64,000 nucleotides of DNA from a virus (IMGVR_UViG_3300006147_000008:19905-83904), one strand, 5' to 3'. Counted from the first letter of the stretch, positions 147 to 47,504 are shown. Notes: generated from the letters alone by a model not told the origin. Translations and numbers: made by a program.

Positions 147-635
147 TTACAACATTCATTGTAGGCACCTCCGAAATAAGATTTTGTTGCAGGCTATAAA
201 TATAAGATAACACGGATTTCCAACTTTGTCAAGAGGAAATCCGTGATTTTGTTTCGCTTTATTTTGAAATGTACGGTTCGATGTGGAGGAGCACCGCCAT
301 GGGGTCGTTGCAATCTTTCAATGTGTTCTTGTAGTGCTGTTTCCACCAGTCGTGCAATAGTTCGGCATTCTTTATGGGGAGGTACTCTTTCATAAGCAGC
401 TGAGGATCATTCTGGGATGCGTAGTCCAATCCCATGAGGTGTAAATCGTCTTCGTCGAACTCTGATAGGGGCTTCACAAAAGTCTTCGTAACGAGCGCAT
501 ACCGGCGAATGGCAAAGTCAGGCATCTGCCTGGTGGCACTTCGTTTTACCGCTTCCGCAAATTTTGTTGCATCCAAAGCGAGAGATGTTTCTGGTACACA
601 CAACTTATCATCAGAGCAGTACCTAGATGGTGTCG

Positions 636-1004
636 TCAATAAACGAGGAGCCAAATGGCAATACAACGAATTTGGACAGCAGCGACGAAGGAAGCGACAT
701 TTTTGGCGTAGCGCGTAGCAATGCCGCGCCAGCGCTTGAGAAGAAGAAAAGCGTTCTCAACGAGATGGCGAAGTTTGTAAAGATATTCGTCGTATTCACG
801 TAATTCTTTGCGGTTTTTCTTTGGAGGGATAACTGGCGTCATTCCCTCGTCAGCAGCTTTGAGAATGATTGCGTCTGTATCATAGCCCCGATCTGCCAGA
901 AGATATTCCGCTTGGAAGCCCTCGATCAACTGCGCTGCAATTGTGCAATCCGCTGTGGTACCAGAAGTGACAAAGAATCGCACCGGCATACCATGCGCAT
1001 CCAC
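636..1004 (-). CDS. IS5-family transposase OrfB (DDE catalytic part), overlaps OrfA (likely programmed frameshift)
   Basis: DDE_Tnp_1-like sequence (LLADRGYDTD...KLRHLVENAF..LK.WRGIATRY); 79-nt overlap with OrfA in different frame. Confidence 0.8.
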   Translation of the reverse strand: MDAHGMPVRFFVTSGTTADCTIAAQLIEGFQAEYLLADRGYDTDAIILKAADEGMTPVIPPKKNRKELREYDEYLYKLRHLVENAFLLLKRWRGIATRYAKNVASFVAAVQIRCIAIWLLVY

Positions 1005-1399
1005 GGCCAGATGTATTTTGGTGTTGAGCCCCCTTTTGTACGGCCCATTGCCTGGTTTCCACCTCGAGCGCCAGTGGCGTCAGGATGTACTTTGACATGG
1101 CTGGCATCGATCATCAGCCACTCAAAGTCGGTGTCATCCACCAGCGCTTCCAGAATCTTTTCCCAAATCCCCTTGTCGCGCCACCGGCAGAACCGCCGGT
1201 GTACATTCTTCCAATTTCCATATGTTTCCGGCAAATCCCGCCAGGGTGCTCCGGTGCGTAAGATCCAGAATACACCGTTGATAAACTGCCGTGTATCTCG
1301 GGCATTGCCTCCGCGCGTCCCCTTTTCGCCTATCGTGTATGGTCTTATTTTCTCCCAAGCTCTGTCGCTTATATCATGTCGATGCTGTTCTCTTGCCAT
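926..1399 (-). CDS. IS5-family transposase OrfA (N-terminal HTH/DUF4096-like part)
   Basis: Protein contains GAPWRDLPE..YG.W..V..RF..W motif typical of IS5 family N-terminal domain. Confidence 0.8.
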   Translation of the reverse strand: MAREQHRHDISDRAWEKIRPYTIGEKGTRGGNARDTRQFINGVFWILRTGAPWRDLPETYGNWKNVHRRFCRWRDKGIWEKILEALVDDTDFEWLMIDASHVKVHPDATGARGGNQAMGRTKGGSTPKYIWPWMRMVCRCDSLSLLVPQRIAQLQRS

Positions 1400-1638
1400 T
1401 TTTCTGCCCCCCGCTTCTTTTGGGGACTATTATAACACACCTTTATTGACGACACCATCTAATAGCCACGAGAACCTTTTGAGATTTTTCTTCGCCCTCT
1501 TTGGTGGTGATTGCTTCGGTCATGGTGATCCTTTTGAACGGCTCTTTGATACAGAGCACGTCGCCGGCCTGTACTACGTCATCAGGGTCGCACGGGACGG
1601 CGAATGCGGGGAGAGTACCGTGCTCCCACCTATGCAGA

Positions 1639-2511
1639 TCAAGCAGGTTCATGTTGAGATACATTGATTGCCTCCAATCTCTGCTGGGCAACTTCCGCCC
1701 AAGGCAGTCCATAAAAATGGCTTTTCTTCTTATCACAGATGCCATTGTCAATACCGATGTACTGCCGCCCTTCCAGCTTGGCGGCAATCAACGTAGCGCC
1801 AGTGCCACAGCAGTTGTCCAACACCAGAGCGCCGGGGTTGGTATAGGTGCGTATGATATAGCGAAGTAGCTCCACAGGTTTTTCAGTGGCATGAAGCGCA
1901 ACAGATGGGTGTGGCTTGGGGAAGCTCCAAATTGACGCTGGGTACTTCATATCGCTGTCGGAAGACTGGACAAGAGTGTAGTTACCATAGCTCCTATTGG
2001 AGTGGATGTCCTCAGCCTGTTTACCAACCGCCCGCCCCTTACTGTGGTTTTTCTCACCCTTCACCATCTGAGGGTTATAGGGTGGTGGAGATTTGTAAAA
2101 CACCATGATATCCTCGTGTTCTCGAAGGGGCATCTTTTTTGCGTTTAGAAAACCGCTTTTGAGTACCTTATCCCAAATAATGTTGTAGCGGTGGAGCTTT
2201 GGGTTAGAAAGCATCATGGTGGCGGTGAACTTGTCTTGCCCGAAGAGAAGGATTGCACCGTTCGGCTTGATGATCCGTTCGTACTGCTCCCAGAGTGGGA
2301 CGGGTGATATCACCACGTCCCACTTATTCTGGGTCGCTCCGTAGGGTAAGTCGCAGAGAATCAAATCTATGCTCTCGGTGTCAATCTCTTTCATTACTTC
2401 CAGGCAGTCACCATTGATGACGGTGTTGGAAGCGATACTCATTACAGCTCCTCCTCGTCTTTGGTCATGGTAAATGCCACAACGGGTGCGTTGAAGGTTT
2501 CTGCCGCCCAT
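1639..2511 (-). CDS. DNA methyltransferase (N6-adenine/N4-cytosine, beta-class, DPPY motif)
   Basis: LCDLPYG (motif IV) near N-terminus and CCGTGAT (motif I) near C-terminus. Confidence 0.75.
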   Translation of the reverse strand: MGGRNLQRTRCGIYHDQRRGGAVMSIASNTVINGDCLEVMKEIDTESIDLILCDLPYGATQNKWDVVISPVPLWEQYERIIKPNGAILLFGQDKFTATMMLSNPKLHRYNIIWDKVLKSGFLNAKKMPLREHEDIMVFYKSPPPYNPQMVKGEKNHSKGRAVGKQAEDIHSNRSYGNYTLVQSSDSDMKYPASIWSFPKPHPSVALHATEKPVELLRYIIRTYTNPGALVLDNCCGTGATLIAAKLEGRQYIGIDNGICDKKKSHFYGLPWAEVAQQRLEAINVSQHEPA

Positions 2512-2744
2512 TGACGTAGCACATCCTGAGCTTCGTCAATCAGAACACCAGGCAGCTTCAATCCCCGTGTCTGGCTTTTCACCGAAATGGGTTCAGGGAT
2601 GCTCACACCCAGCGCCATAGCCTTTTCCATGATGACCCTCTTTTTGCACTCTGTCCCTACAATGATAGGGTATCCAGTGCAGGCCGACGTGTAAATCAGT
2701 GCCGTGGCCTTTCCTTGACCACGCTTCATGAACAGACCCTTCAT
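2442..2744 (-). CDS. hypothetical protein
   Basis: 100-aa ORF co-oriented, overlaps MTase start region; no recognised motif. Confidence 0.3.
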   Translation of the reverse strand: MKGLFMKRGQGKATALIYTSACTGYPIIVGTECKKRVIMEKAMALGVSIPEPISVKSQTRGLKLPGVLIDEAQDVLRQWAAETFNAPVVAFTMTKDEEEL

Positions 2745-2793
2745 AGTTACACCTCTTTATCAAAAAGTAGTTTCATTCAGACTTTTAGCTTAT

Positions 2794-3645
2794 TTATCCG
2801 TTCTCTTCCAGATACGCTTTCACACGTTCACAGTCCCAGTAGGCGGAGAAGGTGCCCAAGGCCATGTCAATCAGGTAGAACTTTTTATCGCCAGCCTCCA
2901 TGAGATCGACAGACCAAATTCCTTTCAGCCCGGTAACGTTTGCCAAAGCCTTTTCTACCAGCTCTACAGCAAATTGGGAAACTTCCTGGAAGCGGCTGAC
3001 CAGCTGTGGATACACAGCCTCATAGACAATTTTGTCTGAGGGGTTACGACTTATGGCCTCGTGGCAGTAGTCCCAATCCCAGTAGTTTTTCGCATAGACG
3101 GCTTGATGCCGGTCAAAGTCATAGAATACACGGATTTCACAACGTAGCGGCATCCCAGAGTAGATAGTGACAACATTCCATGGCGTGCCAATAAACTCGC
3201 GGGCAATCAGCTCTGTGTTACCTCCGGTTTCAAAACACAGGGACTGATAGTTGATATTGACAATACTGCTGGTCAGTGCCATCAAATCACTGCTCTGGCA
3301 CATACATTGTCTGAACTCAAACTTATTGGAAAAGGAGCCGTTCTTAATAAACCACAGCGGCCCATCGAGATCCTTCCGAACAGCGGGGTAGAACGTGTCT
3401 CTGACCCACTTGTAAATCTCCTCCATAATCTGAATTTGTGTCATGCCACGCTTCTCCATGAAGAACAGCTCCATGATTTCAGGCGGAACGGACTGGATTA
3501 CAGTTTTAGGGATCAAAAGGTTATCACCATTTCCAACATCCTTGATTTTGGGGAACCAGAAAGACAGGTTATTGGGGCTTCCGGCCAGATCCTTGTAGTA
3601 GTCCATAAAGCCCGGAGTTATTGTTGTAGTGATTTTCTTCTCCAT
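2794..3645 (-). CDS. hypothetical protein (283 aa)
   Basis: Long intact ORF in operon context; no confident family assignment. Confidence 0.5.
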   Translation of the reverse strand: MEKKITTTITPGFMDYYKDLAGSPNNLSFWFPKIKDVGNGDNLLIPKTVIQSVPPEIMELFFMEKRGMTQIQIMEEIYKWVRDTFYPAVRKDLDGPLWFIKNGSFSNKFEFRQCMCQSSDLMALTSSIVNINYQSLCFETGGNTELIAREFIGTPWNVVTIYSGMPLRCEIRVFYDFDRHQAVYAKNYWDWDYCHEAISRNPSDKIVYEAVYPQLVSRFQEVSQFAVELVEKALANVTGLKGIWSVDLMEAGDKKFYLIDMALGTFSAYWDCERVKAYLEENG

Positions 3646-3651
3646 TGGTAA

Positions 3652-3990
3652 TCACTTCCTTTCCGTGCGTTGCTGCTCTGCAAGCTGATTATTAACGTAG
3701 TCACAGACCTCGCAGTATTCCCGAATAGCGTGAGATAGTTTTTCCTGTTTATCCCTTGGGAGAGTTTCGGCGGTCTTGCCCAAGAGCATCGTCATGTGGT
3801 CAAGAGGGACGGTCATATCCCCCGTAAGTGTAGACAAAGTAGTTTTCGGAAACCACTTGTCATGCGGTTCATTCATCCACCTGTGTACCCATTCCTCCCG
3901 CTCAGGGTTGATGGGAAAACCCATCAACCCCAGCAAGGTAGTTTCAAATAGCGGCTGAGGCATGGTTTGAAGGTACTGAAATACTGTCAT
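3652..3990 (-). CDS. hypothetical protein
   Basis: 112-aa ORF, tight spacing to neighbours. Confidence 0.45.
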   Translation of the reverse strand: MTVFQYLQTMPQPLFETTLLGLMGFPINPEREEWVHRWMNEPHDKWFPKTTLSTLTGDMTVPLDHMTMLLGKTAETLPRDKQEKLSHAIREYCEVCDYVNNQLAEQQRTERK

Positions 3991-3999
3991 GTTAGCCCC

Positions 4000-4305
4000 C
4001 TAAATCTTTTGTCCTTCTACCTGGTAGCCCAAGCGAACCCTTTTCCATTCGCTTTTGAGAAGAGCTTTCAGCTCAGTTGCAACACCCTTGCACATTCGGG
4101 CGGTCTGTCCTGTCACTTCGTATTCACAGAGATAGGTGCCATCCTCCGACGTTCCAAAGCCTACATAGATGTTAAGGCGGTTTGCCCAGTCAATAACCTC
4201 ATCAACTTTCGCCTTGTGTTGTTCATAGTAGGCGCTGACATCTTCCACATTCTCTTCCAGAAGCCAAGACCCACGCACAAACTTCTCTTTTGCCATGCCG
4301 CTCAC
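4000..4305 (-). CDS. hypothetical protein
   Basis: 101-aa ORF, 4-nt overlap with downstream gene. Confidence 0.45.
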
Positions 4306-5315
4306 CGTTTTCCTGTGGTGCCGAACCCGCCACGGTCAGCGTTGCCCAGCGAAGTCACTGCCTCAAAATGAAGCTGGGGCTGGTGCTTATCAATGCGGAA
4401 CTGGCAAATGCGGTCGCCGACGTGGATTTCAGTATCACGCATGGCGATGGCCGGGAAGTGCCACTGATCATTGTCACCACAATAGCTTTCGTCGATCATG
4501 CCAATGTGGTTGGCCTGGATGATGCCAAAGTTTTTGAAGGTAGAGCTACGGGGGATCATGTACGCCTCATAACCCTTGGGGAGCTGCATAGCAATACCCA
4601 ATGGGATCAACTTGTAGTCCCCCTTCTTCATGGTGGCGTCCTCGGCAGCATAGAGGTCGATCCAGTCAGACTTGCCGTCGATATAGCTCAGAGGCGGGAT
4701 GTCCGGGGAAAGATAGCGTACCTTAATGGTCTGGGTACTCGAAGTGCGTCGCAGCATCTCAGCCGCCGCCTTGTCGTTCAGGATCTCCAGAACATGGCTC
4801 ACCAGTGTGTCATACCCAGCGAAGTCCCCGTTGATATGGCAGCAGTCAACGTTGTGGGCTTCCAAAAACCGCAGCAGATCCTCACTGAGTTTGTCGCTCT
4901 CAGCTTCAGTCTGGAAGCGCCCTGCCTCATTGTAGGGCTTTACTCGATGGACATACACGTTTACACTGTCATAGTGGTTGAACACTTTGAGGGTGAGGTC
5001 GTTGAACTCCTTGCCCAGCACCTGATCGTTTTTGCCATAAAAGGCGGAGAGAAGGATGGGCGAGTCAGTAATCGCCACGTCCACTTTGCCAACAAGCCGG
5101 CTGATGCGGAAATACTGTTTACCGAAGATGTACGCCTGGTTCTCAAAGACAGCTTTTGTCTCCTCCCAGACCTTATCTTTGGCGAACTCTGTGACAAGTT
5201 CGGCGTTGATGCCAGCAGCTTTTAGCTGGGAGAAAACATAGGCCGCTCCAGTGGACTTACCCGCACCGGGAGCACCAAACAGATTGATGATCAACATTTT
5301 CAGAAACCTCCTCAT
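4302..5315 (-). CDS. P-loop NTPase (kinase-like) fused to trimeric dUTPase
   Basis: N-term GAPGAGKST Walker A; C-term dUTPase motifs [10 protein letters not shown] (motif 3) and RGGFGTTG (motif 5). Confidence 0.7.
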
Positions 5316-5839
5316 TGTTTCTCGTAAAGAATGATTTTGCCTTGCTTGATAGTTTTCTGCACGTCAATCACACGTTGATTGGCGGAACCGCGCCAATTCA
5401 AAGCACGGTCGGCCTGTGCCTCAATAAAGGGGCCATCAATCACCACGTCACAACGCATCAGAAGCTCCTGCTTCATAATGCCAATGTTACTGTAATGGTT
5501 GTTATTGAAGAGATCTTCCCATAAGAAGCCTGTCCAAAGCCATACCGTCTTGTCCATACATTTGGTGATCTTGCACAGTTCGTTCAGGTAAAAGATGCCA
5601 TGGGGATTTTGACACATTGGGTCGCCGCCCAGTATACTTAACCCACTAACGGTGGGTTCCTTCAGCATCGTGCTCAACTCAAAAAGGGTGTCTGTGGTAA
5701 AGAGCTTGCCATACTCAAAGTCCTGCGCCTCTGGGTTGAAGCAACCAGGACAGTGGTTGGTACATCCGCTCACGAAGAGGGAGGTGCGGACTCCCTCTCC
5801 GTTTGCGATGTCGTGATTACGAATTGCGGCGTAATTCAT
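5312..5839 (-). CDS. nrdG: anaerobic ribonucleotide reductase activating protein (radical SAM)
   Basis: [12 protein letters not shown] CxxxCxxC cluster; immediately downstream of nrdD. Confidence 0.8.
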
Positions 5840-6066
5840 TTGCCATTCTCCAAATTCCCAAGTTCATGTTGTGCCCACATTGAAATTCCTTTTGGAATAT
5901 TTGCCTGGTAGTATTCTGTTCCATTGAAATTTTTACAGCCTTTACACCCAACAAGGGTACAAGAGATTTCATTCTTCCAATGTTCGGATGCCGGTTCTTC
6001 ACACATTGCCCCACATGGCAGGCAGATAACATCCGCCATATTACTCTTCACCTCCGAGGTGGACAT
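5836..6066 (-). CDS. small Cys-rich hypothetical protein between nrdD and nrdG
   Basis: 76-aa ORF with CxxC...CxxC pattern; overlaps nrdD end by about 26 nt. Confidence 0.35.
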   Translation of the reverse strand: MSTSEVKSNMADVICLPCGAMCEEPASEHWKNEISCTLVGCKGCKNFNGTEYYQANIPKGISMWAQHELGNLENGK

Positions 6067-8353
6067 ACCGTTCCTTGATTTCCTCTGTCCGTCCCTGGTT
6101 CCAGTCGTTCAGACCGATGTAACCACAGGTACGGCGGGCAATGTTCATTTTGGTCTTGTCAGTGTTCCCACAGTTGGGGCAGCGCCACACCAGTTTGTCA
6201 CGTTCATCTTCCACGATTTCGATTTCCTTATCCCAGCCGCACACTTGGCAGTAATCGGATTTCGTGTTGATTTCCGCGTACATGATGTTTTCGTAAATGT
6301 ACTTCAACACTGTCATGACTGCGGGAATGTTGTCGGTGAGGTTCGCCACCTCAATGTAGCTGATTGCCCCACCGGGAGACAGCCTCTGGAACTGAGACTC
6401 AAACTTGAGCTTGTCAAAAGCGTCGATATGCTCCGTAACATGAACGTGGTAGCTGTTTGTGATATACCCCTTGTCGGTAATACCCTCGATCACACCAAAG
6501 CGCTGCTGAAGGCATTTGGCGAATTTGTAGGTAGTGCTCTCAATGGGTGTCCCATAAAGGGAATAGTCGATATCCTCCGCAGCTTTCCACTCAGCACACT
6601 TGTCGTTCATGCGCTGCATGACCTGCAACGCGAAAGTCTCACCACCAGGATCGGTATGGCTTACGCCAGTCATAGCCTTAACACACTCATACAAGCCGGC
6701 GTACCCCAAAGAGATAGTAGAGTAGCCACCATAGAGGAGCTTATCAATCTTTTCTCCTTTTTTGAGACGGGCCAAAGCGCCATACTGCCAATGGATGGGA
6801 GATGCGTCAGATATGGTGCCCAACAACCGCTCGTGACGAATACGAAGGGCACGGTGACACAGCTCCAGCCGCTCATCAAAAATCTCCCAGAAGGTTTCAA
6901 ATAGGGCTTTCAGATCGTCATGATCCTCAAGTGCCTGCCAAGTGTGCAAAGCACTCAAAGCTACGTCAGGAAGATTGATGGTGACAACACCTTGATTGAA
7001 GCGCCCATAGTATTTGGGCTTTCCAGGCTGATAGTTGCCAGCGTTGGCGATATTGTTCCAGCCGTTGCCAGAACGGTCAGGCGTGAGGAAAGAGCGACAG
7101 CCCATGCAGGTGTATACGTCGCCGTTACCCTCAGTCTCGCCCAGTGACAGCTTGTATTCCCTCATTTTCTTTGCGGAAATGTAGTCAGGAACAAGCCGTT
7201 TGGCGGAGCAACCCGCGCACATCACGGATAGATAGTAGTAGGGTGAACCCTCAAAAACGTTATCTTTATCCAGCACATAGATGAGCTTGGGGAATGCTGG
7301 TGTAATCCACACACCCTTCTCGTTCTTGACTCCCTGCCGACGCTGCCGTACAACCTCTTCAATGACCATAGCAAGGTCTTTTTTGCCTTGCGGATCGTCA
7401 ACCTCGCCCAAGTTCATGTAGACGGTGATAAATGGAGCCTGCCCATTTGTGGTCATGAGGGTGATAACCTGATATTGAATGGTTTGGACTCCACGTTTGA
7501 CTTCATCGCGGACACGGCGTTCGGTTACACGTTGGGCATACCTCTCATAGTGGTTTGAGCCAATGGTCATGGCGATTTCGCCGTTTTCGATGCCCTCATT
7601 CAATTCTTCATAGACCTGTTGCCGGATTTTCTGGCGACTGATCTCCACAAAGGGCGAAAGATGGGCCAAAGAAATAGACTGTCCGCCATATTGATTGGAT
7701 GCCACCTGTGCAATGATCTGTGTGGCGACATTACACGCCGTAGAAAAAGAGTGCGGCTTCTCAATTAACGTGCCAGAGATAACGGTGCCATTTTGTAGCA
7801 TATCTTCCAGGTTGATGAGACAGCAATTCATCATGTGTTGGACAAAGTAATCACTGTCGTGGAAATGAATGATACCCTCGTCGTGTGCCTGCCGAATCTC
7901 GTCAGGGAGCAACTGACGGTTGGTTACATCGCGGCTTACCTCGCCGGCGATGTAGTCCCGCTGCACGGAAAGAATGGTGGGGTTTTTGTTGCTGTTTTCT
8001 TGGATCACCGTTTCGTTGATGCCATCCGCAATGGAAAGGATCTTGCCATCAAGAGTAGAGGCGTTGCGCAGCAGTTCATGCTCATAGCGGTACTTGATAT
8101 ACGCTTTGGCAAGGTCAAACCGCCCCTCTTTCATCAGCTCTGTCTCCACATCGTCTTGGATCTCCTCGACGGAAATCGTGCGGTTGCGGCGCTTATACCG
8201 AGAATAGAGCCGTTCGGTAATCCGCTTGGAAAGCTCATCCTTGTCCTTAATGGGGTGGATTTTGTCAACCTCGTCTGCCGCCCGGTGGACGGCATTGTAA
8301 ATTTTGCTCTTGTTGAAAACGACCTCGCGGCCATCACGCTTGATTACTACCAT
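6041..8353 (-). CDS. nrdD: anaerobic ribonucleoside-triphosphate reductase (class III)
   Basis: 770 aa; C-terminal glycyl-radical motif RRTCGYIGL; Cys-rich zinc ribbon (CQVCG...CPNCG) before it. Confidence 0.9.
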   Translation of the reverse strand: MVVIKRDGREVVFNKSKIYNAVHRAADEVDKIHPIKDKDELSKRITERLYSRYKRRNRTISVEEIQDDVETELMKEGRFDLAKAYIKYRYEHELLRNASTLDGKILSIADGINETVIQENSNKNPTILSVQRDYIAGEVSRDVTNRQLLPDEIRQAHDEGIIHFHDSDYFVQHMMNCCLINLEDMLQNGTVISGTLIEKPHSFSTACNVATQIIAQVASNQYGGQSISLAHLSPFVEISRQKIRQQVYEELNEGIENGEIAMTIGSNHYERYAQRVTERRVRDEVKRGVQTIQYQVITLMTTNGQAPFITVYMNLGEVDDPQGKKDLAMVIEEVVRQRRQGVKNEKGVWITPAFPKLIYVLDKDNVFEGSPYYYLSVMCAGCSAKRLVPDYISAKKMREYKLSLGETEGNGDVYTCMGCRSFLTPDRSGNGWNNIANAGNYQPGKPKYYGRFNQGVVTINLPDVALSALHTWQALEDHDDLKALFETFWEIFDERLELCHRALRIRHERLLGTISDASPIHWQYGALARLKKGEKIDKLLYGGYSTISLGYAGLYECVKAMTGVSHTDPGGETFALQVMQRMNDKCAEWKAAEDIDYSLYGTPIESTTYKFAKCLQQRFGVIEGITDKGYITNSYHVHVTEHIDAFDKLKFESQFQRLSPGGAISYIEVANLTDNIPAVMTVLKYIYENIMYAEINTKSDYCQVCGWDKEIEIVEDERDKLVWRCPNCGNTDKTKMNIARRTCGYIGLNDWNQGRTEEIKERYVHLGGEE

Positions 8354-8927
8354 CTAAACTCTCCTTCCACTTCATGAAGTCGATACGGCGGCGGATGATA
8401 CGCTCAACATCATCCCAGGTCTGAACACGGGCGATACCATGAGCCGCATTGTCGAAGCCGTGGTTATGAGGACGGTCGAACAAAATAGGTACATATTCAC
8501 CGTCAATCAGGTTGTGCGGAGCGTCGTCAATCAGGAAGTCCCCCTTCACCAGTTGCTTGTTTGCGGTGATGATAACGTGGTTCCAGTCCAGGAAGGGGAA
8601 TAGCTGTAAGATACGCTCCATTTTGGCCTTACAGGTCTGGTAGCCCGTAGCAGTGACCATGTAGAGCTGATGCCCCTCGTTGTAGAGCCTTTGCAGCACT
8701 TCCAGACTGCCAGGGACACGTTCAAGCCTATGAAACAGCTCATCCTCGTTGAGCACACCAAAAACCTGTTCCCTGGTCAGTGTTGGAAATGCCAAGGCGA
8801 TATCCCAATCGGTTACATCCTCAATCCTAACCGACGTGCCGTAGCGCTCATTGAGGAGCGCTATCCAGCAGTCGCACAGGTTCTCCACGGTGTCGTCGGC
8901 GTCAAATAAGATTGTCAGCGGCTTCAT
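8334..8927 (-). CDS. HAD-family 5'(3')-deoxyribonucleotidase
   Basis: ILFDADDTV (DxDxT) motif; probable start MKPLTIL at about 8927 (ATGA overlap with upstream gene). Confidence 0.65.
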   Translation of the reverse strand: MKPLTILFDADDTVENLCDCWIALLNERYGTSVRIEDVTDWDIALAFPTLTREQVFGVLNEDELFHRLERVPGSLEVLQRLYNEGHQLYMVTATGYQTCKAKMERILQLFPFLDWNHVIITANKQLVKGDFLIDDAPHNLIDGEYVPILFDRPHNHGFDNAAHGIARVQTWDDVERIIRRRIDFMKWKESLDGSNQA

Positions 8928-9490
8928 TCTTTGCGCCTCCTGATAGTGATACCCGTCCAATCAAGCAATCCACGCTGGATCAAGCCAGCCACCATCGTCT
9001 GTAAATCTTCCAAGGTGCCGTCATTGATGATGTGGAGATCGTAATGGTAGTTATCCAAAGCTGTCTCAGATGGGTGCATCTGCTGTTTGTCGGTCAACGG
9101 AGAGACAAAATTGGGACGCTCCACACGGAGCAAAGAGGCATCCATACCATAGTTTTTGAAGATCTCAAACTCATTGGGGAAACGGGTATCGGGGATGAGC
9201 ACGTAGTCCCACTCATCGGGAAACATGGACAGAATGCCTACGATGAAGTCCACCCAATAATCTGGGGACTGTGCCCGAATCTTATCAGTGCCGACGTACT
9301 GCAAAAGCGTCCGCCCCTTTTCATCCTTCTTACCGTCCCAACCGAAGAACTTGGTACAGACGTACTTGACCAGATCCCCGAAATGAGCAATCAGGACTTT
9401 CTTCCCCTGGGCGGTCAATTCATCCGCCATGAATTGTGCCGTGGTGTCTTTGCCGTTCTGTGCTTTACCCGAAATGCAGATAATCTTCAT
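8924..9490 (-). CDS. deoxynucleoside monophosphate kinase (P-loop)
   Basis: ISGKAQNGKDT Walker A at N-terminus; 188 aa typical of phage dNMP kinases. Confidence 0.65.
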   Translation of the reverse strand: MKIICISGKAQNGKDTTAQFMADELTAQGKKVLIAHFGDLVKYVCTKFFGWDGKKDEKGRTLLQYVGTDKIRAQSPDYWVDFIVGILSMFPDEWDYVLIPDTRFPNEFEIFKNYGMDASLLRVERPNFVSPLTDKQQMHPSETALDNYHYDLHIINDGTLEDLQTMVAGLIQRGLLDWTGITIRRRKE

Positions 9491-10116
9491 GCTGCCACCT
9501 CAATATCGTCAAAAACCACGGGGATGAGCTGCTTCAACCCTTCCAGCAAAGGAATCGCCACCTCACGCATCTGGGGATGAGCAGCGGGCGCACAGCGGAG
9601 CTTAAAGAAATGTCGCCATTCACGGATGTTGGCCGTCATAACCACCTCAGTTTTGAGGCTATTGGGAAGGACGCTACGGGCTTCTTGGGCAGAACAGCCG
9701 AGATCCAACATCCTAAAATAGGAGAACTCAGCATTCTTCATGGCGGACTCCCATGCTGCCCACTGCGGAGTGTCATGCACCAAGAAGCAAGGCTCAATAA
9801 CGGTGATTTCACTGCCGAAACTGTTCTTAGAGTAGTTGCAGTAGCGAGTGCTCTCCTGGCAGTACGCCGCAAGGCGATGCCGGACAATCTCGTGGCTGAC
9901 CCCACGATCCACAATGAATTTCACCGTAATGGACTGGTGCTCCAATACGGCCTCGTGGCCGCGCTTGATAATACCGGCCACAAATTTTGTGGCGCTGTCT
10001 TCGGTAATTTTGTCCTCAGACTTGTAGCAAACACGGCCAGCCTGCTCGATTGACTTCAAGATTTCCATGCTATTGATAGGCGTCACAACCTCAAAGCCTG
10101 CTTTGATAATTTTCAT
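9487..10116 (-). CDS. thyX: flavin-dependent thymidylate synthase
   Basis: ThyX signature EIVRHRLAAYCQESTRY (RHRxxxxxS); 209 aa. Confidence 0.85.
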   Translation of the reverse strand: MKIIKAGFEVVTPINSMEILKSIEQAGRVCYKSEDKITEDSATKFVAGIIKRGHEAVLEHQSITVKFIVDRGVSHEIVRHRLAAYCQESTRYCNYSKNSFGSEITVIEPCFLVHDTPQWAAWESAMKNAEFSYFRMLDLGCSAQEARSVLPNSLKTEVVMTANIREWRHFFKLRCAPAAHPQMREVAIPLLEGLKQLIPVVFDDIEVAA

Positions 10117-10148
10117 AGTAGTACCTCCATGAGAGATTTTGTTGTATG

Positions 10149-10748
10149 CTATGAATAAGTACGAAAGACGTGTGCGCCAATCGTCTTATAATAGCTGCCG
10201 TAACGGAGACTGCCTGTGGAGAAAAACACAACATCCGTATTCAAATCAAGCGCTGGGTGTCCCATAAGCGCCGCTTCTACCGCTTCCTCCTGCGCCTCAG
10301 TATACGTGTTGCCTACACAAAACTGGTTTGGCTGAAACAACACCGATTCCACATCGCTGGGGAATTTCTCGTGCATTAGGCGGTTCAACGCCACCTGTAC
10401 GACCGCAACTTGCCCGTCAAACTCCTGATTGCCTGCCTCACTGTAAGCCATACAGCATAACCACACACGTTCCTGATCGGTTAGTGTAATCCCAGCATAG
10501 GGATTAAGGTTCTCCTGTGGGGGTTCTGGCTCAGGTGTGGGTATCACCATTGGAGAAGGTGTAGCAGACGGCGAAGGTACAGTAGCGGGAAGGTTCACAG
10601 CGGCCCTCAAAGTGGAGGCAGGTTCGCTTTGCGTGGGGGGGATAGCATCATTGCTGAACGCAGCCAACACACTAATTCCAACCAACACCACCATCAAAAC
10701 GACAATGTAAATCGGCCCAAACATCTTGATTTTCTCTTTGGTCATCAT
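10149..10748 (-). CDS. membrane-anchored SleB-like cell wall hydrolase
   Basis: N-terminal TM helix, Pro-rich linker, Hydrolase_2-like AYSEAGNQ...VAVVQVALNR; start at RBS-preceded MMTKEK. Confidence 0.6.
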   Translation of the reverse strand: MMTKEKIKMFGPIYIVVLMVVLVGISVLAAFSNDAIPPTQSEPASTLRAAVNLPATVPSPSATPSPMVIPTPEPEPPQENLNPYAGITLTDQERVWLCCMAYSEAGNQEFDGQVAVVQVALNRLMHEKFPSDVESVLFQPNQFCVGNTYTEAQEEAVEAALMGHPALDLNTDVVFFSTGSLRYGSYYKTIGAHVFRTYS

Positions 10749-10759
10749 ATCAAATCTCC

Positions 10760-18610: not shown

Positions 18611-18654
18611 TCAAAACTACCTCCAAGAGAGATTTTGTTGCACGTTATCGACAT

Positions 18655-20974: not shown

Positions 20975-21050
20975 AAGAGGTTCCTCCTATCAAATAGTAT
21001 AGCACATACTGCTGCTCAAGTCAAGAGATTTTGTTGCACTGTATGACCAG

Positions 21051-35849: not shown

Positions 35850-35908
35850 TGTTTATCACTCCTTCAAGAGATTTTGTTGCACCAAAAGCAAAAAAGGTAC
35901 AAAAAAAA

Positions 35909-37066: not shown

Positions 37067-37134
37067 GATATCCGTGGGTATTGGAAAATTCGCCTGAGCC
37101 TCCTTTGAGAGATTTTATTGCTTGCTATTCGGTT

Positions 37135-38688: not shown

Positions 38689-38784
38689 TTTCTCTTACCT
38701 CCTTGATTTTGAGATACTCGGAACACATAGGGATTTTTGTTGTTCGTGTTCAGAGATGTACCCGTCTTTCCGGGTTGTCTAAGG

Positions 38785-38907
38785 TACGGCGGGTAGGATT
38801 TGAACCTACGAATGGCAGCTTGGCTTCCTTTTTACATTGCTGTTAGTGAAACTGGGGTGTTCCACATTTTATAGGGCTGCTGTGTTAAACCACTTCACCA
38901 CCGCCGT
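38785..38907 (-). ncRNA. tRNA-like RNA A (about 123 nt): canonical arms plus about 56-nt insert between anticodon-stem strands
   Basis: 7-bp acceptor ACGGCGG/CCGCCGT, D-arm GGTG..CACA, T-arm GTAGG-TTCAAAT-CCTAC; GCAGC...GCTGC encloses an insert with hairpin GTGGAAC-N6-GTTTCAC and ACAGCAA box. Confidence 0.55.
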
Positions 38908-38912
38908 GTAGG

Positions 38913-39030
38913 TGCCAGGGGTTGGATTTGAACCAACGACCTTCGGCTCCTGGCCGACGCTCTATCCAGATAAACTTGCTGTTCACGCCTCTTAAAAGAC
39001 GCACGTTTTTTTTGACTGAGCTACCCTGAC
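38913..39030 (-). ncRNA. tRNA-like RNA B (about 118 nt): about 44-nt insert in D-loop
   Basis: Acceptor GTCAGGG/CCCTGGC, TAGCTCAGTC...TGGATAGAGC D-arm split by insert (hairpin CGTCTT-TTAA-GAGGCG + ACAGCAA), T-arm GTTGG-TTCAAAT-CCAAC; anticodon loop non-canonical. Confidence 0.55.
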
Positions 39031-39036
39031 ATATGT

Positions 39037-39156
39037 TGCGGCAGGCAGGACTCGAACCTACAGTGTAGCGGTTCCCATTAGCATACCTTGCTGTCAGTGA
39101 AACCAGACGTTTCACATTTTGCATTACCGCCGTGTCTACCATTCCACCACTGCCGC
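39037..39156 (-). ncRNA. tRNA-like RNA C (about 120 nt): about 53-nt insert in anticodon region
   Basis: Acceptor GCGGCAG/CTGCCGC, D-arm GGTGGAATGGTAGACAC, stem GCGGT/ACCGC around insert (GTGAAAC-GTCTG-GTTTCAC hairpin + ACAGCAA), T-arm GTAGG-TTCGAGT-CCTGC. Confidence 0.55.
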
Positions 39157-39280: not shown

Positions 39281-39397
39281 TGCCAGGGGTGGGACTCGAA
39301 CCCACGACCACGGGATTAAAAAGTCCTTTTGAAAATTGCTGTGCGCGTTTCCTTGAATACGCATTGATACGTGCTCTATCCGCTGAGCTACCCTGGC
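39281..39397 (-). ncRNA. tRNA-like RNA D (about 117 nt): insert after a canonical D-arm
   Basis: Acceptor GCCAGGG/CCCTGGC, D-arm GCTC-AGCGGATA-GAGC, T-arm GTGGG-TTCGAGT-CCCAC; insert with hairpin TGCGT..ACGCG + CACAGCAA. Confidence 0.55.
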
Positions 39398-40100: not shown

Positions 40101-40176
40101 GTATTGCCCGTCTTTCCAGGCTGTCAGTGGTCTTTCCCACCGTCAGAAAGGGGGTCGCCGCCCACCACAGCGGCGA

Positions 40177-40267
40177 TGGCGAAGGGAGCGGGACTCGAAC
40201 CCACACGTCCTTGCGGGCTACTGCTGGTTTAGCAAACCAGTGCCTTACCAGTTAGGCTTATCCCTCC
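40177..40267 (-). tRNA. tRNA-Ser (anticodon GCU), type II with long variable arm, encoded CCA
   Basis: Acceptor GGAGGGA/TCCCTTC, anticodon stem CTGGT/ACCAG with loop TTGCTAA, 19-nt variable arm, T-arm GTGGG-TTCGAGT-CCCGC, 3' GCCA; promoter-like ACAGCAAT box 68 nt upstream (about 40335-40346). Confidence 0.7.
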
Positions 40268-41399: not shown

Positions 41400-41419
41400 G
41401 TTGTCGTTACCTCCGTTTT

Positions 41420-41602: not shown

Positions 41603-41691
41603 GTTCTCCCCCCCTATGCTAATTTTGAGAGATTTTGTTGCTTGCTATTGAGTTCTTAAAACGGCGTAAGCCGTTTTAAGAGTTATAGCCT

Positions 41692-42627
41692 TTAGTAGAA
41701 TAACCGCTTGTAAAGCGTGTAGTCGTTCATACGCTGCCGGTATATGCGCTGCACATCCGTCTTGGCCTTTGGATTGACAAAATCCTCACAGAACACCTTG
41801 GAGGCAAAGGCCAGGTCGTCCAAATTGAACTTTGTGCTCTCGCATTCCAGCATATACGCCCGGTAGAATATTCCCGACAACCGCACCACCTCAAACCGAA
41901 GTGCTCCGATGTGATCCAGTATCTTGTCCATACGGCTCAAACTGCGCCGCATATGGAAGACGGTCATTTGAGATGAAGCAAGTGTCCGTATCAGGTTGGG
42001 CGACTCAGCGTAGCGCATGAAAGTAAGACCCTTGGACTGCTTGTAGTAGCCGTCCGCGTCCCGCAGGCGGGCCAGGATTTCGGTCACAAAACTTGGCATG
42101 GAAATCATCTGACCGTTCAGCATCACACCTTCATTTGTTACGGCGTCCTTCGGGAGATTGATGATTTCCTCCTCTGTCAAGCCAAACCAGGCCAGATAAA
42201 GGATCGAAACTGGCACATCAAAAACCATATCGTCCGCACGCGCCGCAGCGTCTATGGTGCTCTGGATCATCTCACGCAACATGGACAAATTCTTGTAGTA
42301 GCGGATGCGTCCATCTTCCGACTTGATACTCAGCTCCTCCGGCTTGATGGAAAAGATGATCTGCTCATGTTCCTCTGGCATAACCTGATGGGAAATCATA
42401 TACCGGACGTAGTGCATAACGACTTTCCTATCGTTGAGAAAGGTGCCGGTCTTTTGCACCAGGAGGGAACTGAACAGCTTGATGTACTCCTCTCTGGTGT
42501 ATCCCTCGTCCAGCGTCTTACCGAAGCTCTCCTCGAACTTCAAGACCTTGTTCCATGTCCTTTGGAACTGTGCGGCCTGCGGGTATGAGGAACTGCCCTC
42601 CGGGTCGTCGAAATATTTCTTGCGGTT
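41692..42627 (-). CDS. hypothetical protein (312 aa)
   Basis: Start MNRKKYF placed downstream of leader box at 42651-42680 with GGAGAAACGGAGG RBS. Confidence 0.45.
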   Translation of the reverse strand, partial: NRKKYFDDPEGSSSYPQAAQFQRTWNKVLKFEESFGKTLDEGYTREEYIKLFSSLLVQKTGTFLNDRKVVMHYVRYMISHQVMPEEHEQIIFSIKPEELSIKSEDGRIRYYKNLSMLREMIQSTIDAAARADDMVFDVPVSILYLAWFGLTEEEIINLPKDAVTNEGVMLNGQMISMPSFVTEILARLRDADGYYKQSKGLTFMRYAESPNLIRTLASSQMTVFHMRRSLSRMDKILDHIGALRFEVVRLSGIFYRAYMLECESTKFNLDDLAFASKVFCEDFVNPKAKTDVQRIYRQRMNDYTLYKRLFY

Positions 42628-42748
42628 CATGGCGTCCTCCGTTTCTCCACAAAAGATTTTGTGTAATGCTATCTTAGCACTTCTTGACGGGTTTGTCAAT
42701 AGGGTGAAACAAAATTGCAGAGATTTTTTTTGGAGGTCGCCTTGGCTA

Positions 42749-43225
42749 TTACTCTTCCAGCCGACGATGCAGCCAGTTCTTTTGCTGAGGGGTCAGACGG
42801 TCAACCATCTTGCCCAGCCACTTGAAATCTGTCGCAAGCAACCGCCAGTTGAAATAGTTGGCTTCCTCAAAACCCAGCTGCCGGCTGTCCAGGCCAGTGT
42901 CTTGGGCAAAGAACTTGTCCAGCAGACCCATGATCTGCTCATTGGTGGCCTCCAAGGGGCGGCGCATCTGCTTCCCACCGTTCAGATCAGCGACCAGCGC
43001 ACACTTCACTCCCTGAACGGGCTGGGCGGTTATCTGGATGTACGCGCTGGACACCGAGGACATCTGCTTGGGAAGCGGGCCGCGATAAGGAAGCATGATG
43101 TTCTCCTTTTTTGCGCTGTGAAGCTCCACCGCGCTGGTGTCCAGCTCAAAGCCTCCGAAATCTTCTACCGGATTGTTCCGCAGTTGCATTTTCCTACCTC
43201 CGTTCATTTTTTGGTTGACGTTCAT
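42749..43225 (-). CDS. hypothetical protein
   Basis: 158-aa ORF; divergent to HTH gene. Confidence 0.4.
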   Translation of the reverse strand: MNVNQKMNGGRKMQLRNNPVEDFGGFELDTSAVELHSAKKENIMLPYRGPLPKQMSSVSSAYIQITAQPVQGVKCALVADLNGGKQMRRPLEATNEQIMGLLDKFFAQDTGLDSRQLGFEEANYFNWRLLATDFKWLGKMVDRLTPQQKNWLHRRLEE

Positions 43226-43365
43226 TGAAATATGTGATATAATTTTCTCGAAACACGAAAGTTATCGTGTCTGTTGCCTACTATACCATCAAACTTTCGT
43301 GCTGTCAAGTGGTTTTCACGAAAATCTGCGTGACTTTTTCAAAATTTCTACTGGGAGGTCATGTT

Positions 43366-43731
43366 ATGGAGTCCATCATCTTTACAAGGATCAAGGAACT
43401 GTGTGTTGAAAACGACATCACAGTCAATAAACTTGAGTCCGAGTTGGGTATGAGCCAATATTCCATTGGGAGATGGAAAAACGCCACATCACCCACTATT
43501 GACAAGGTTTCCAAGATCGCTAAATATTTCAATGTCTCCATAGACTACTTGGTAGGCGCTACAGACATCCGCACACCCATGGATACCATGATGAAGGATC
43601 AGGACTTCATCTCTATCCAGCGGGCGCGGGAGCAAATGAGCGACAGAGATCGGCAGCGCATGATGATTATGCTAAAGGCCGGCTTTGACTTTGCTTTTTC
43701 CGACGACAAGTCCCGTTTATCGGACACTTGA
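43366..43731 (+). CDS. XRE-family HTH transcriptional regulator (CI/ImmR-like repressor)
   Basis: HTH_3 ...ITVNKLESELGMSQYSIGRWKNA...; RBS GGGAGG before MESIIF. Confidence 0.8.
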   Translation: MESIIFTRIKELCVENDITVNKLESELGMSQYSIGRWKNATSPTIDKVSKIAKYFNVSIDYLVGATDIRTPMDTMMKDQDFISIQRAREQMSDRDRQRMMIMLKAGFDFAFSDDKSRLSDT

Positions 43732-43773
43732 TATGATATACTTGTTTCCCAACGGTTCCGAAAGGAGGCAGAA

Positions 43774-44373
43774 ATGGTCAGGACTGTCTATGTCCAACGT
43801 AAAGTGCTGGAGATATACCAACGGATGGATACTATCATCTATCCCATCCAACCCTTAACGGTAATTCCATGCCTTACCCAGCATTGTCGAGCGCTTACCT
43901 ATCAGGATATGGCAAAGCTCAACCAATGCAACATCAAAGATGTAGCTGTCATGTGTAAAAGCAATTCCGGTGCAACCCACTACGATACTGAACAGAACCG
44001 TTACCTCATCCTTTACAACGACGCTATGAACCAAGGAAGGGTTCGATGGACAATCAGCCATGAAATCGGCCACATCTGCATTGGGCACCTGGAAATGATT
44101 GAGGAAGCAGAGATTGCTTGCTCCGAATGGCGGGAACCATACAATCAGTTCGAGGGTGAAGCTGACTATTTTGCTTGGAACCTCATCGCTCCACTCCCTA
44201 TCATGCGTGAAATGGGCATCCGTACTGCAAATCAGATACAAACCGTGTACGGCCTGTCATCCCAAGCCGCCGCTCTCCACTATGACAGATACCTCAAGTG
44301 GTGCCGCAGCCATATCAAAACCGCTTGGGAAAACAATATGCTCCGAGAGTTCCGCTGTAAATTCCAGAAGTGA
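43774..44373 (+). CDS. ImmA/IrrE-family zinc metallopeptidase
   Basis: HEIGHICIGH zinc-binding motif; directly downstream of XRE regulator. Confidence 0.8.
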   Translation: MVRTVYVQRKVLEIYQRMDTIIYPIQPLTVIPCLTQHCRALTYQDMAKLNQCNIKDVAVMCKSNSGATHYDTEQNRYLILYNDAMNQGRVRWTISHEIGHICIGHLEMIEEAEIACSEWREPYNQFEGEADYFAWNLIAPLPIMREMGIRTANQIQTVYGLSSQAAALHYDRYLKWCRSHIKTAWENNMLREFRCKFQK

Positions 44374-44375
44374 CT

Positions 44376-44406
44376 TTTGGGGATACCGCCCTCTTGCGAG
44401 GGCGGT
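44376..44406 (+). terminator. rho-independent terminator after immA-like gene
   Basis: CCGCCCTCTTGCGAGGGCGG hairpin followed by T9. Confidence 0.8.
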
Positions 44407-44413
44407 ATTTTTT

Positions 44414-47400: not shown

Positions 47401-47458
47401 CGTTCAGCTCACGACGGGCCTCCTGGGGGATAATCTCATTGTGAAATGTGTATTTCAT
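44414..47458 (-). CDS. DarB-like N6-adenine DNA methyltransferase fused to SNF2/DEAD-type helicase (1014 aa)
   Basis: N-term MTase motif VVGNPPFNLKW; central/C-term helicase motifs (GGGKT-like Walker A region, DESDEMTNP DExx box). Confidence 0.8.
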   Translation of the reverse strand: MKYTFHNEIIPQEARRELNDKILYIVDQDIAEQEGITREDIFNAYTGDGGLHGLKRSDFANYHEYGEAKKEIENGQFFTPPALCQFIMEALDVGMTDTVADLTSGMAHFANFMPVEANFYGCELDIKSHKVAHYLYPAANLEHKDIRFYEPDMHFDFVVGNPPFNLKWQVDDTEYISQMYYCLKAAQLLKPLGIMAIVVPAQFLSDDYMDKQKIAEMEKHFSFMGQIEIMGGAFRYLGVTNYLTKVMFWQKRMDGEEVSGVYRLDCDAQMFSLDDTADLLRYTKEKIVAPAKMLKQQNRARAELLGRSDNCSEFDYQVQKMLFHIKKNPKLADKYAKCQEYLYKFQHQVQPADMKYEEWAKIRITEAKVLAYLRRVVKSQHKKPSRDVIRLVKQDGGLIYKGYSKKVRQSMTLEMKQFVPFYALVSGQMDGTGLEQYARLIRRKQRDYDRETKPFEEMELDAKIARFLDEFTVYDNENEEWIHLNDTQKHNLNLILQKRYHLLQWEQGGGKTLAGIATGRYRMERQGARNVWVVSTAISIKNNWDLVFKNYGMTNYRMIRTLSDLDGVRDGEFVIITLNMLSKYRKQIKRHIKMRQRNVDLVFDESDEMTNPDSKRTKAVLDCFRKVRFKLEMTGTVTRNNISESAPQLELLYNNSYNMISWAECLYQYEKDEDGSWLGSTNNPFYGKPIPAYKPGYRLFAESHLPEKITVFGVGKKTQDIYNADALNRMLSYAVITRTFAEITGKEIRRIHQVPVSFSSVEREVYRKAVEEFFALRQRYFALTGNSRKDSMMALIQQITLLLRISAAPNTVEEYDSADLPVKIRKVCDMVAEWNDEVVVIGVRHKNVVEAYTEAIRQRFPKRKLFTVTGSTTTLAGRRKLKKSLKESGNGIMVCTQQCLPSSVNFEFVNKVVIPELHYNNARMSQFYMRFVRFTSTDWKDIYFVTYSGSIESNQMQMVLAKEKLNLFMKGQDVDLDEVYNRFGVDYDLMSLLMSRKVDDKGLSYLSWGKQVIE

Positions 47459-47469
47459 GCAGTCACCGC

Positions 47470-47504
47470 CTCAATTTATTGAGAGATTTTGTTGCTTGCT
47501 AAGG
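47470..47504 (-). promoter_or_regulatory. promoter cassette P1 (drives MTase-helicase gene); also carries leader box
   Basis: minus strand: TTAGCAAGCAACAAAATCTCTCAATAAATTGAGG. Confidence 0.5.

Follow-up and report, generated by a model that had tools for sequence, protein, structure and literature searches.

In the present study a repeated box of about 20 bases was analyzed in a viral DNA fragment of 64,000 nucleotides (nt) (IMGVR_UViG_3300006147_000008:19905-83904; this whole stretch is called the window, and positions are counted from its first letter). The question raised by this locus is which function a sequence has that recurs in front of so many genes and operons. An earlier, sequence-only reading had suggested an operator, an activator site or an RNA leader. 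The operator is favoured by the results obtained here: a repressor homologue is encoded in the window, its promoter is bracketed by boxes, boxes lie where a bound protein would occlude RNA polymerase, and their sequence co-varies with the repressor clade. The box is probably the operator of an integrase-fold master repressor, and would correspond, in a prophage family of Oscillospiraceae, to the SPbeta repeated element (SPBRE) and to Phi3TRE of the Bacillus phages SPbeta and phi3T. Protein and box are connected by homology, layout and co-variation; binding, repression and some of the start sites are inferred.

The repeated box in the window is real. A motif search found it over-represented, strand-biased and in intergenic DNA. 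Its 15-nt core, GCAACAAAATCTCTC, had 10 matches at up to three mismatches against 2.28 expected, and none of 100 shuffles gave 10 matches; nine of the 10 were on the minus strand, which is also the strand of nearly all genes in the window. At up to six mismatches the 22-mer ATAGCAAGCAACAAAATCTCTC was found nine times on the minus strand and not at all on the plus strand (0.35 expected per strand, maximum 2), and at up to four mismatches five times, where none was expected. Alignment of 14 sites of the window lineage gave approximately 20 informative positions, (a)TAGCa-n-GCAACAAAATCTCT, and the consensus can be written (A/T)TAGCA-N-GCAACAAAATCTCT. The box is long, non-palindromic and A-tract-containing, has 50% GC, and is dispersed in many copies. 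Ten copies were accepted within the 64 kb, together with one degenerate and one inverted copy, all of them intergenic. They are given below with the promoters to which they are linked (SD, Shine-Dalgarno sequence; MTase, methyltransferase; aa, amino acids).

176-197, minus strand: box ATAGCCTGCAACAAAATCTTAT, 5 mismatches in 22, starting 7 nt past the -10 element TATCTT (209-204); GGAGG lies 8 nt after AAAT
232-204, minus strand: sigmaA-type promoter at the 176 copy, -35 TTGACA at 232-227 and -10 TATCTT at 209-204
241-262, minus strand: degenerate direct box ATAAAGCGAAACAAAATCACGG, 8 mismatches, upstream of TTGACA at 232-227
10131-10152, minus strand: box before thyX, 2 mismatches, directly 5' of the SD
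18627-18648, minus strand: box before erf, 3 mismatches, directly 5' of the SD
21023-21044, minus strand: box at the C5-MTase promoter, its 3' end overlapping the -35 TTGACT (21024-19) of TTGACT-N17-TATACT
35866-35887, minus strand: box before the RNA-ligase-like gene, core intact and TAGC end degenerate, 5' of the SD
37107-37128, minus strand: box before the cysteine desulfurase gene, 1 mismatch, followed by GGAGG
41627-41648, minus strand: box before the 60-aa gene that leads the SPFH operon, 0 mismatches, after a small hairpin
42651-42672, minus strand: box ATAGCATTACACAAAATCTTTT, 6 mismatches, its first bases overlapping the end of the -10 TAAGAT (42676-42671)
42671-42699, minus strand: sigmaA-type promoter TTGACA-N17-TAAGAT of the repressor-like gene, 10 of 12 matches, TG before the -10, between two inverted boxes
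42699-42720, plus strand: inverted box ATAGGGTGAAACAAAATTGCAG, abutting the -35 TTGACA (42699-42694) of the repressor-like gene promoter
47481-47502, minus strand: box before the MTase-helicase gene, 1 mismatch, preceded by a structured leader that lies downstream of a type-1 element, and followed by the SD
61480-61501, minus strand: box in a type-1 element, forming the spacer of GGTTAGCA-box-TGTAAT

Of at least 12 copies that had been proposed, 10 of the 12 listed hold and two are weak: the one at 23631-23650 is a partial match within the NAMPT coding end, with no box there in the related loci scanned, and the one at 38730-38748 coincides with an A/C-rich loop, that of a conserved hairpin (GAACAC...GTGTTC) behind a tRNA cluster. 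A further candidate at 46560 was rejected as a chance match within an open reading frame. The statement that all copies are on the minus strand fails at the inverted copy. The genes assigned downstream were recovered by Pfam (thyX, ERF, C5-MTase, NAD synthase, RNA ligase, cysteine desulfurase, the DUF2828/vWA-like gene, SPFH and MTase-helicase), and the TTGACT-N17-TATACT sequence after the 21023 copy is present as described. The end of the box had been placed 1–10 nt before GGAGG; the distance from AAAT to GGAGG is 6–8 nt at five copies (176, 10131, 18627, 35866 and 37107), but longer at 41627, 47481, 61480 and 21023. A constant spacing that would mark a start site was likewise not upheld, since it concerns only these five copies and is 3–4 nt at many sites of sister lineages; the distance from motif to SD runs from 1 to 45 nt.

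The protein proposed to read the box is encoded directly downstream of the promoter at 42699.

41692-42630, minus strand: gene for a 312-aa homologue of MrpR/YopR/SroF, with an integrase fold consisting of core-binding (CB) and catalytic (CAT) domains

This protein has no Pfam match and only a weak PHROG match to 'integrase', and neither tblastn against the phage collection nor phmmer and a narrow profile against PDB sequences gave any relevant match. Its AlphaFold2 model reached a pLDDT of 90.8 from a 49-sequence alignment (37.6 from the single sequence). When this model was compared with the PDB by Foldseek, YopR, MrpR and SroF came out on top (E 2.4e-7 to 1.9e-6), namely SPbeta YopR/MrpR (8bj6, 8a0a, 8bpz) and phi3T SroF (9rd5, 9rgl; DNA-bound and in the antirepressor complex). 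Lambda Int and Cre followed at E ≥3e-3, ordinary recombinases being at least four orders of magnitude weaker. A 72-sequence profile aligned to SPbeta YopR by hhalign over 274 columns (P 96.2%, E 2.6e-9), and the motif SG(I/H)(F/L)YRAY is aligned in both proteins. The family consensus has GLTEEE in the place of the recombinase Arg-I motif, TGLRxxE, so that Arg I appears to be replaced, and SGIFYRAY in the place of HxLRH; the near-invariant Tyr304 is kept. The family comprises 544 clusters at 50% identity (E ≤1e-3). These results show that the 312-aa protein is homologous to the integrase-fold repressor of SPbeta and phi3T and has a tyrosine-recombinase fold.

Relatives of the window were reached through their proteins, because the box sequence is private to the window lineage: in viral contigs its 14-mer gave only scattered single chance matches and its 19-mer none. 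Absence from related phages had been named as a finding that would refute a regulatory role. The exact sequence is absent, whereas a lineage-specific equivalent occupies the same syntenic positions in each lineage (thyX, erf, the C5-MTase promoter, RNA ligase, the cysteine desulfurase leader and the SPFH operon), and boxes of relatives also flank both sides of two sigmaA-type promoters. Six types of box were distinguished.

Lineage W (window): TAGCAAGCAACAAAATCTCTC
Lineage A: TAGCAACAAAGTAAATTA
Lineage B: TAGCGACGAAYWAAATCA
Lineage C: TAGCAACWCATWAAATYA
Lineage D: (A)TAGAGACAAAAATACATAG
Lineage E: AGGAAATTAGTTAAACAAT

Every genome contains, on the gene strand, 2–6 boxes of its own type in 23 kb and practically no boxes of another type. 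When the lineage-A box was searched for in its exact form, more than 20 distinct sites per genome type were detected, in the same kinds of position as the window box. Boxes precede thyX in lineages B, C, D and E, erf in A, B and C, the RNA ligase gene in A, B, C and D, and the SPFH operon in A, B, C, D and E; at the position of 47481 relatives have either a lineage-specific version or none. One case of mixed types was found. The related loci L134 (type B) and L155 (type D) share an 11-kb block of 99.7% identity (1967-13083; small genes and MTase-helicase) and then diverge, and L134 has a D-type box within this block and B-type boxes elsewhere. This indicates a recent recombination that left a 'foreign' D-type box in a B-type genome.

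Canonical TTGACA-N17-TATAAT-like promoters are present in the window, and the box is linked to promoters in four ways. It abuts or overlaps the -35 element (21023, L230:3211 and several sites of lineages A and B, e.g. box-GA-TTGACG-N17-TAAGAT), an order of box and then TTGAC(A/T) which at the C5-MTase gene is kept in lineages A and B. It lies a few bases past the -10 element, at approximately +1 to +20 (42651, 176 and a site in L242). It fills the spacer of the type-1 element GTTAGCA-N16-TGTAAW (61480 and L120:2113), and finally it occurs as an inverted pair around a promoter, which is the case for the promoter at 42699 and for a second promoter in lineage A (L242). Judged from this layout, all four positions are such that a bound protein would occlude RNA polymerase.

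In nearly every MTase-helicase locus of relatives with recognisable boxes there is exactly one inverted copy, in the lineage's own sequence, and the inverted copies examined (lineages A–D and cultured Oscillospiraceae lysogens) were all in the same place, abutting the -35 of the repressor gene. The direct box downstream of it, which spans approximately +1 to +20, is clear only in the window lineage and in lineage A, where the layout is kept in relatives that include the cultured lysogens L360 and L362. The layout of two boxes and one promoter at 176/241 was also seen in lineages A, B and C, and the equivalent of 241-262 in lineage A is a near-consensus box (L178:22599, L196:23313, L206:21657). 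At this site a palindrome, CACGGATTTCC-TCTTGACAAAGTT-GGAAATCCGTG (245-211, minus strand), encloses the -35 of the sigmaA-type promoter; its arms change compensatorily between lineages (GGCTTCCC/GGGAGGCC in lineage A), and a second operator or a hairpin are possible roles.

Two fusions of the box with the type-1 element had been reported. Only one is in the window (61503, carrying GGTTAGCAAGCAAC), and two further GGTTAGCAAGCAAC fusions lie just past its right end (L230:3211 and L230:4233); fusions with the lineage-A box occur at L120:2113 and related loci. The type-1 element itself, GTTAGCA-N16-TGTAAW-N6-7-GGAGG, was found at 15 sites on the minus strand (47550-63942) and one on the plus strand, usually after a terminator and before a small gene, and its TTAGCAA resembles the 5' end of the box. 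It is identical in lineages W and A–D, and a group of approximately 60% identity has GGTTWA-N17-GGTAGRTATAATAGGAGG instead.

The remaining copies are placed directly against the SD, and no sigmaA promoter is recognisable there. Within the box, CAAAAT was tried as a -10 element, and inspection revealed no conserved -35 hexamer at 16–18 nt; with TAGCA as a -35 element and the type-1 spacing, the -10 would land on the SD. The copy at 10131 precedes a block of thyX, deoxynucleoside monophosphate (dNMP) kinase, NT5C and NrdD genes, and its TAG also terminates the cell-wall hydrolase gene upstream. The copy at 18627 precedes a block of ERF, SSB, nuclease, primase-helicase and PolIII-alpha genes. At 41627 the SD of the 60-aa gene (41614-41608) is a run of G residues whose length varies among close relatives, with seven in the window, eight in L148 (6175) and nine in L159 (14134). 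The structured leader before the MTase-helicase gene (47558-47510, minus strand) has the alternative pairings GATGGAGG, TGGAGG-A-CTCCA and CCTCCATC, and is kept in relatives with compensatory changes (GAGAGG...CCTCTC in lineage A). At 37107 the GGAGG after the box is not a ribosome-binding site. It belongs to a conserved hairpin, GGAGGCTCAG...CTGAGCCTC, of which it forms the 5' arm and which, with a U-run, occupies 37103-37049 (minus strand) between the box and the start of the cysteine desulfurase gene; the true SD is 60 nt away. In lineages A, B and C this stem likewise comes after the lineage's own box, as is seen in L134, L119, L171 and L172, and it looks like an attenuator or a 5' stabiliser.

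Copies against the SD invite a reading in which the box acts in the messenger RNA (mRNA), as a leader for a translational repressor or enhancer, for processing, or for antisense pairing with the inverted copy as the source. Sense-strand copies stand against the SD at most sites, including the terminator-less operon interiors at 10131 and 18627, two sigmaA-type promoters would yield transcripts that begin with the box, and the lineage-matched inverted copy could pair with it. The RNA leader of the sequence-only reading fits these SD-adjoining copies, but not those upstream of or inside promoters, nor the inverted copy: 21023, 241-262, L230:3211 and several lineage-A sites are upstream of promoters and 61480 is in a spacer, none of them adjoining an SD, and some of these copies are probably not transcribed from the adjacent promoter. 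At 37107 the GGAGG is buried in the hairpin. By hand comparison, the inverted arms match each other at 13 of 17 positions and the consensus also at 13 of 17, with no compensatory changes, and the SPbeta counterpart is bound as double-stranded DNA. A function in mRNA is improbable on these grounds.

The same placement, together with the comparison of lineages, bears on the idea that the box is the core of a phage-specific promoter, used by a phage sigma factor or RNA polymerase or by the host polymerase with a phage activator. The polymerase would read TAGC and AAAT and start just before the SD, and such a function may coexist with that of an operator. In four lineages (W and A–C) TAGC-N8-AAAT is constant and the middle is variable, as in the promoters of T7, T3 and SP6. 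The box is a contiguous and asymmetric sequence of about 20 nt, almost always co-oriented with the downstream gene, and is found immediately ahead of SDs, in some cases just past a hairpin or terminator (41627); the conserved hairpin after the 37107 box begins at GGAGG, like a 5'-terminal stem, and SPBRE contains TGTATATAAT, which is similar to an extended -10. However, AAAT or its equivalent is only 1–4 nt from GGAGG in lineages A, B, C and E, so that a start 6–8 nt downstream would remove the SD. Positions in a spacer, over the +1 of a sigmaA promoter or abutting a -35 are typical for operators and odd for promoters, the conserved inverted copy has no gene to drive, and experiments have identified the homologous repeat of SPbeta as a repressor site. 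Furthermore, no sigma or RNA polymerase domain was detected (Pfam, PHROGs) in approximately 60 proteins of the window or in flanks of approximately 17 kb, a search that covered about half of the genome. A role as promoter core is considered unlikely, though less so than a role in mRNA.

Evidence of a different kind comes from the divergence of the repressor homologue, which is present in every lineage. Its identity between lineages is 38–55%, while that of the MTase-helicase is 70–83%, and in lineage E the values are 23–28% and 60%. Clades whose repressors are 71–81% identical (A/A' and C1/C2) have a common box type. In lineage D the backbone is ordinary (PolIII-alpha 78% identical to that of the window), while repressor and box are both the most divergent, the repressor within the W–D set. 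These data suggest, as a correlation only, that the box type follows the repressor clade and that the repressor diverges faster than its neighbours. It is this type-2 box that tracks the repressor and not the type-1 element, because the latter is unchanged in W and A–D although the repressors differ.

Three other genes lie in the same region.

42749-43189, minus strand: 146-aa gene without a family match, between the XRE-side promoter (43308) and the repressor-like gene
43267-43731, plus strand: XRE regulator
43774-44373, plus strand: ImmA-like metalloprotease

The XRE and ImmA genes are divergent from a TTGACA-N17-TATAGT promoter (43308, minus strand), with an inverted repeat, CACGAAAGTT...AACTTTCGTG, at 43301-43254. 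They constitute an ImmR/ImmA-type module that adjoins the integrase-fold repressor gene. Either the XRE regulator or the 146-aa protein might be the reader of the box, since both genes are within this immunity region, XRE proteins are the usual phage repressors, and the 146-aa protein diverges about as fast as the repressor homologue (35–59% identity, compared with 80% for neighbouring genes). The XRE regulator, which had been named as a possible partner, is probably the wrong protein: its identity (58–79%, as for ImmA) follows the backbone, the box has no dyad symmetry while XRE dimers usually bind palindromes, and a palindrome is found where the XRE gene has its divergent promoter. As for the 146-aa protein, the phages of lineage E gave no detectable homologue, yet boxes are found there at the same positions, and the integrase-fold homologue is the one that occurs in every lineage. 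Binding by one of these two proteins is improbable; the 146-aa protein may be a partner of the repressor, such as an antirepressor.

The operator of the integrase-fold repressor therefore stays the preferred reading, and a mechanism can be outlined by homology. The 312-aa product would be a catalytically dead protein of the tyrosine-recombinase fold, and is predicted to clamp as a monomer around a single asymmetric, A-tract-containing box of approximately 20 bp. A dozen or more boxes would be distributed across the early and replication regions, in each case at or beside the point where a transcription unit begins. In the lysogen, the bound repressor would exclude or block RNA polymerase, because boxes overlap the -35, cover +1 to +20, fill a spacer or abut the SD. 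The two inverted boxes around the promoter of the repressor gene would provide autoregulation, and the box sequence of each lineage, matched to its repressor allele, would confer specificity of immunity. The description of the downstream genes as 'middle-class' is an assumption; boxes are also found at sigmaA-type (early-looking) promoters and at the repressor gene.

Several observations weigh against this reading. Identity to SroF and MrpR is only 14–16%, and with a narrow profile the hhalign result was weak (P 6.6%). Six of the 10 copies (10131, 18627, 35866, 37107, 41627 and 47481) have no recognisable sigmaA promoter, so that a promoter of unrecognised type or a roadblock is needed there. 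The near-universal co-orientation is not required of a monomeric binder, and suggests an additional directional signal, i.e. part of a promoter or a leader. Boxes also diverge more as the genomes as a whole diverge more, so that the co-variation counts only in part as independent evidence. Finally, no Sar-like antirepressor or arbitrium (AimR/AimP) genes came up in the Pfam and PHROGs annotation of the window, and no LexA box was identified there.

Some of these features would be accounted for by a composite promoter-operator with a two-tier cascade that differs from SPbeta, a possibility put forward tentatively. TAGC...AAAT, conserved in W and A–C, would be read by RNA polymerase at promoters that lack a -35 and start at the SD, and the integrase-fold repressor would recognise the middle part, which differs between lineages. 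On induction, ImmA would cleave XRE, the 146-aa protein would be expressed as an antirepressor, and the integrase-fold repressor would leave approximately 15–20 boxes.

The lifestyle of the phage family is relevant to a lysogenic repressor. The window corresponds to the part of a phage of approximately 125–145 kb that carries small ('early-looking') genes and genes for replication and nucleotide metabolism; it encodes PolIII-alpha, primase-helicase, ERF, SSB, NrdD, ThyX, DNA ligase, NAD salvage enzymes and RNA ligase. Megablast of 14 kb against the phage collection gave no match, i.e. a close relative is not among the deposited phages; by PolIII-alpha the closest isolates are large siphophages of Clostridioides and Bacillus, and more than 100 related contigs are present in IMG/VR. 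Relatives of one window gene were found within bacterial contigs of 259–581 kb (Dysosmobacter segnis, an Oscillospiraceae isolate and a Clostridiaceae metagenome-assembled genome, MAG), and Hominicoprocola fusiformis and a Butyricicoccus MAG have related prophages in contigs of smaller size. The prophages of Dysosmobacter segnis BX15 and Hominicoprocola fusiformis CLA-AA-H269 belong to lineage A. From this it follows that the family is temperate. A tyrosine recombinase gene is located 8.6–9.4 kb upstream of the gene at 62893-62405, approximately 7.5 kb past the right end of the window.

Two further features of the window were noted. Four Rfam tRNA matches (39–50 bits, 117–123 nt, minus strand: 38785-38907, 38913-39030, 39037-39156 and 39281-39397) are tRNA-like genes with insertions of approximately 45 nt that were not called by ARAGORN, whose sole call was a tRNA-Ser at 40177-40267. 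Genes for an RNA ligase, a kinase/HD phosphatase and, just past the window, a Thg1 homologue are present as well, and tRNA processing or repair is therefore suggested. In addition, four G/C homopolymers of 9–10 nt were found (20010-20019, 20305-20313, 21480-21489 and 57327-57335), compared with approximately 0.4 expected per 64 kb. Three of them are situated around a split C5-MTase (N-terminal part 20974-20477, C-terminal part 20103-19336), which may reflect phase variation or frameshifting.

When the box is compared with known systems, phage promoters (the 23-bp promoters of T7, T3 and SP6, the MotA-box middle promoters of T4 and its late promoter TATAAATA) share with it a contiguous, lineage-specific sequence with conserved flanks and a variable middle, which is co-oriented with genes and found before replication genes. 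They differ in that no cognate polymerase, sigma factor or activator was found for the box in the parts of the genome examined, and in that the box is embedded in other promoters and in several lineages leaves no room for a start site; the spacing of the MotA box, approximately 12 bp upstream of a sigma70 -10, is not kept either. If the operator reading holds, CI and Cro of lambda would be similar in the repression of lytic promoters in the lysogen, autoregulation of the repressor and specificity of immunity. Their operators are, however, short palindromes bound by helix-turn-helix dimers in one or two control regions, whereas the sites in the window are single, asymmetric and scattered over tens of kb.

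The closest likeness is to the SPbeta group. MrpR, the master repressor of SPbeta, binds SPBRE at 10 genomic sites, as found by chromatin affinity purification with sequencing (ChAP-seq) and by electrophoretic mobility shift assay (Kohm et al. 2023, PMC10516654). SroF of phi3T wraps DNA as a monomer and reads 24 of the 26 bp of its asymmetric A-tract box; such sites occur dispersed throughout the genome, and both the box (SPBRE versus Phi3TRE) and the antirepressor are phage-specific (bioRxiv 10.1101/2025.11.27.690993). In the SPbeta sequence NC_001884 approximately 13 copies of CAAATACAAATAATATGTATA were found in the current study, every one co-oriented with the downstream gene, and located directly 5' of the SD (yonX P2, yopM, yopV), 12–25 nt from the SD, or abutting a -35 (aimR). 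SPBRE thus has the same positional repertoire as the window box, and a homologous protein (hhalign P 96%). Both are long, asymmetric, A-rich repeats with approximately 10–20 copies over early and replication regions, co-oriented with genes, in a large temperate phage of approximately 130–140 kb. Synteny is also shared, with PolIII-alpha, a cell-wall hydrolase-like gene, the box or SPBRE, and then dNMP kinase, NT5C, ribonucleotide reductase and dUTPase.

The differences from SPbeta are the host (Bacillus as opposed to Oscillospiraceae, Clostridia), a protein identity of approximately 15%, and a box that is unrelated in detail (TAGCAAGCAACAAAATCTCTC versus CAAATACAAATAATATGTATA). In SPbeta the repressor gene is the last of a six-gene sro operon, while that of the window has its own promoter between inverted boxes, with XRE and ImmA beside it; arbitrium genes were not seen in the window. 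With phi3T, a monomeric clamp of approximately 24 bp would explain a non-palindromic repeat of 20–22 nt, and boxes and repressors are phage-specific in both cases. Phi3TRE has 26 bp and is AT-rich, in contrast to the approximately 20 informative positions and 50% GC of the window box, and a Sar antirepressor with a LexA box was not identified in the window, where induction may run via ImmA/XRE.

On the preferred reading the box is a distant example of a known system and no new kind of element, because the same kind of switch is described in SPbeta. Until now, SPbeta-like (arbitrium) phages of Bacillus have been the only ones in which a dispersed, repeated operator was described for an integrase-fold master repressor, and there the repressor was presented as unique among phage repressors. 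If the operator reading is true, the same logic would exist at approximately 15% protein identity in large Oscillospiraceae prophages of the human gut, pointing to an old and widespread way to silence a prophage of 130–140 kb, and a function would be given to a Pfam-less protein and a conspicuous repeat of uncultivated gut phages. Several natural specificity variants and cultured lysogens would then be available in the family, and groups of immunity should be predictable from sequence because the box type follows the repressor clade. Should the composite arrangement also be true, six natural pairs of repressor and box on similar backbones would form a series for reading the DNA code of a monomeric recombinase-fold repressor. 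Compared with the Bacillus phages, what would be new here is the setting in gut Oscillospiraceae, the occurrence of at least six types of specificity, and a different neighbourhood, with a putatively autoregulated promoter and an XRE and ImmA module.

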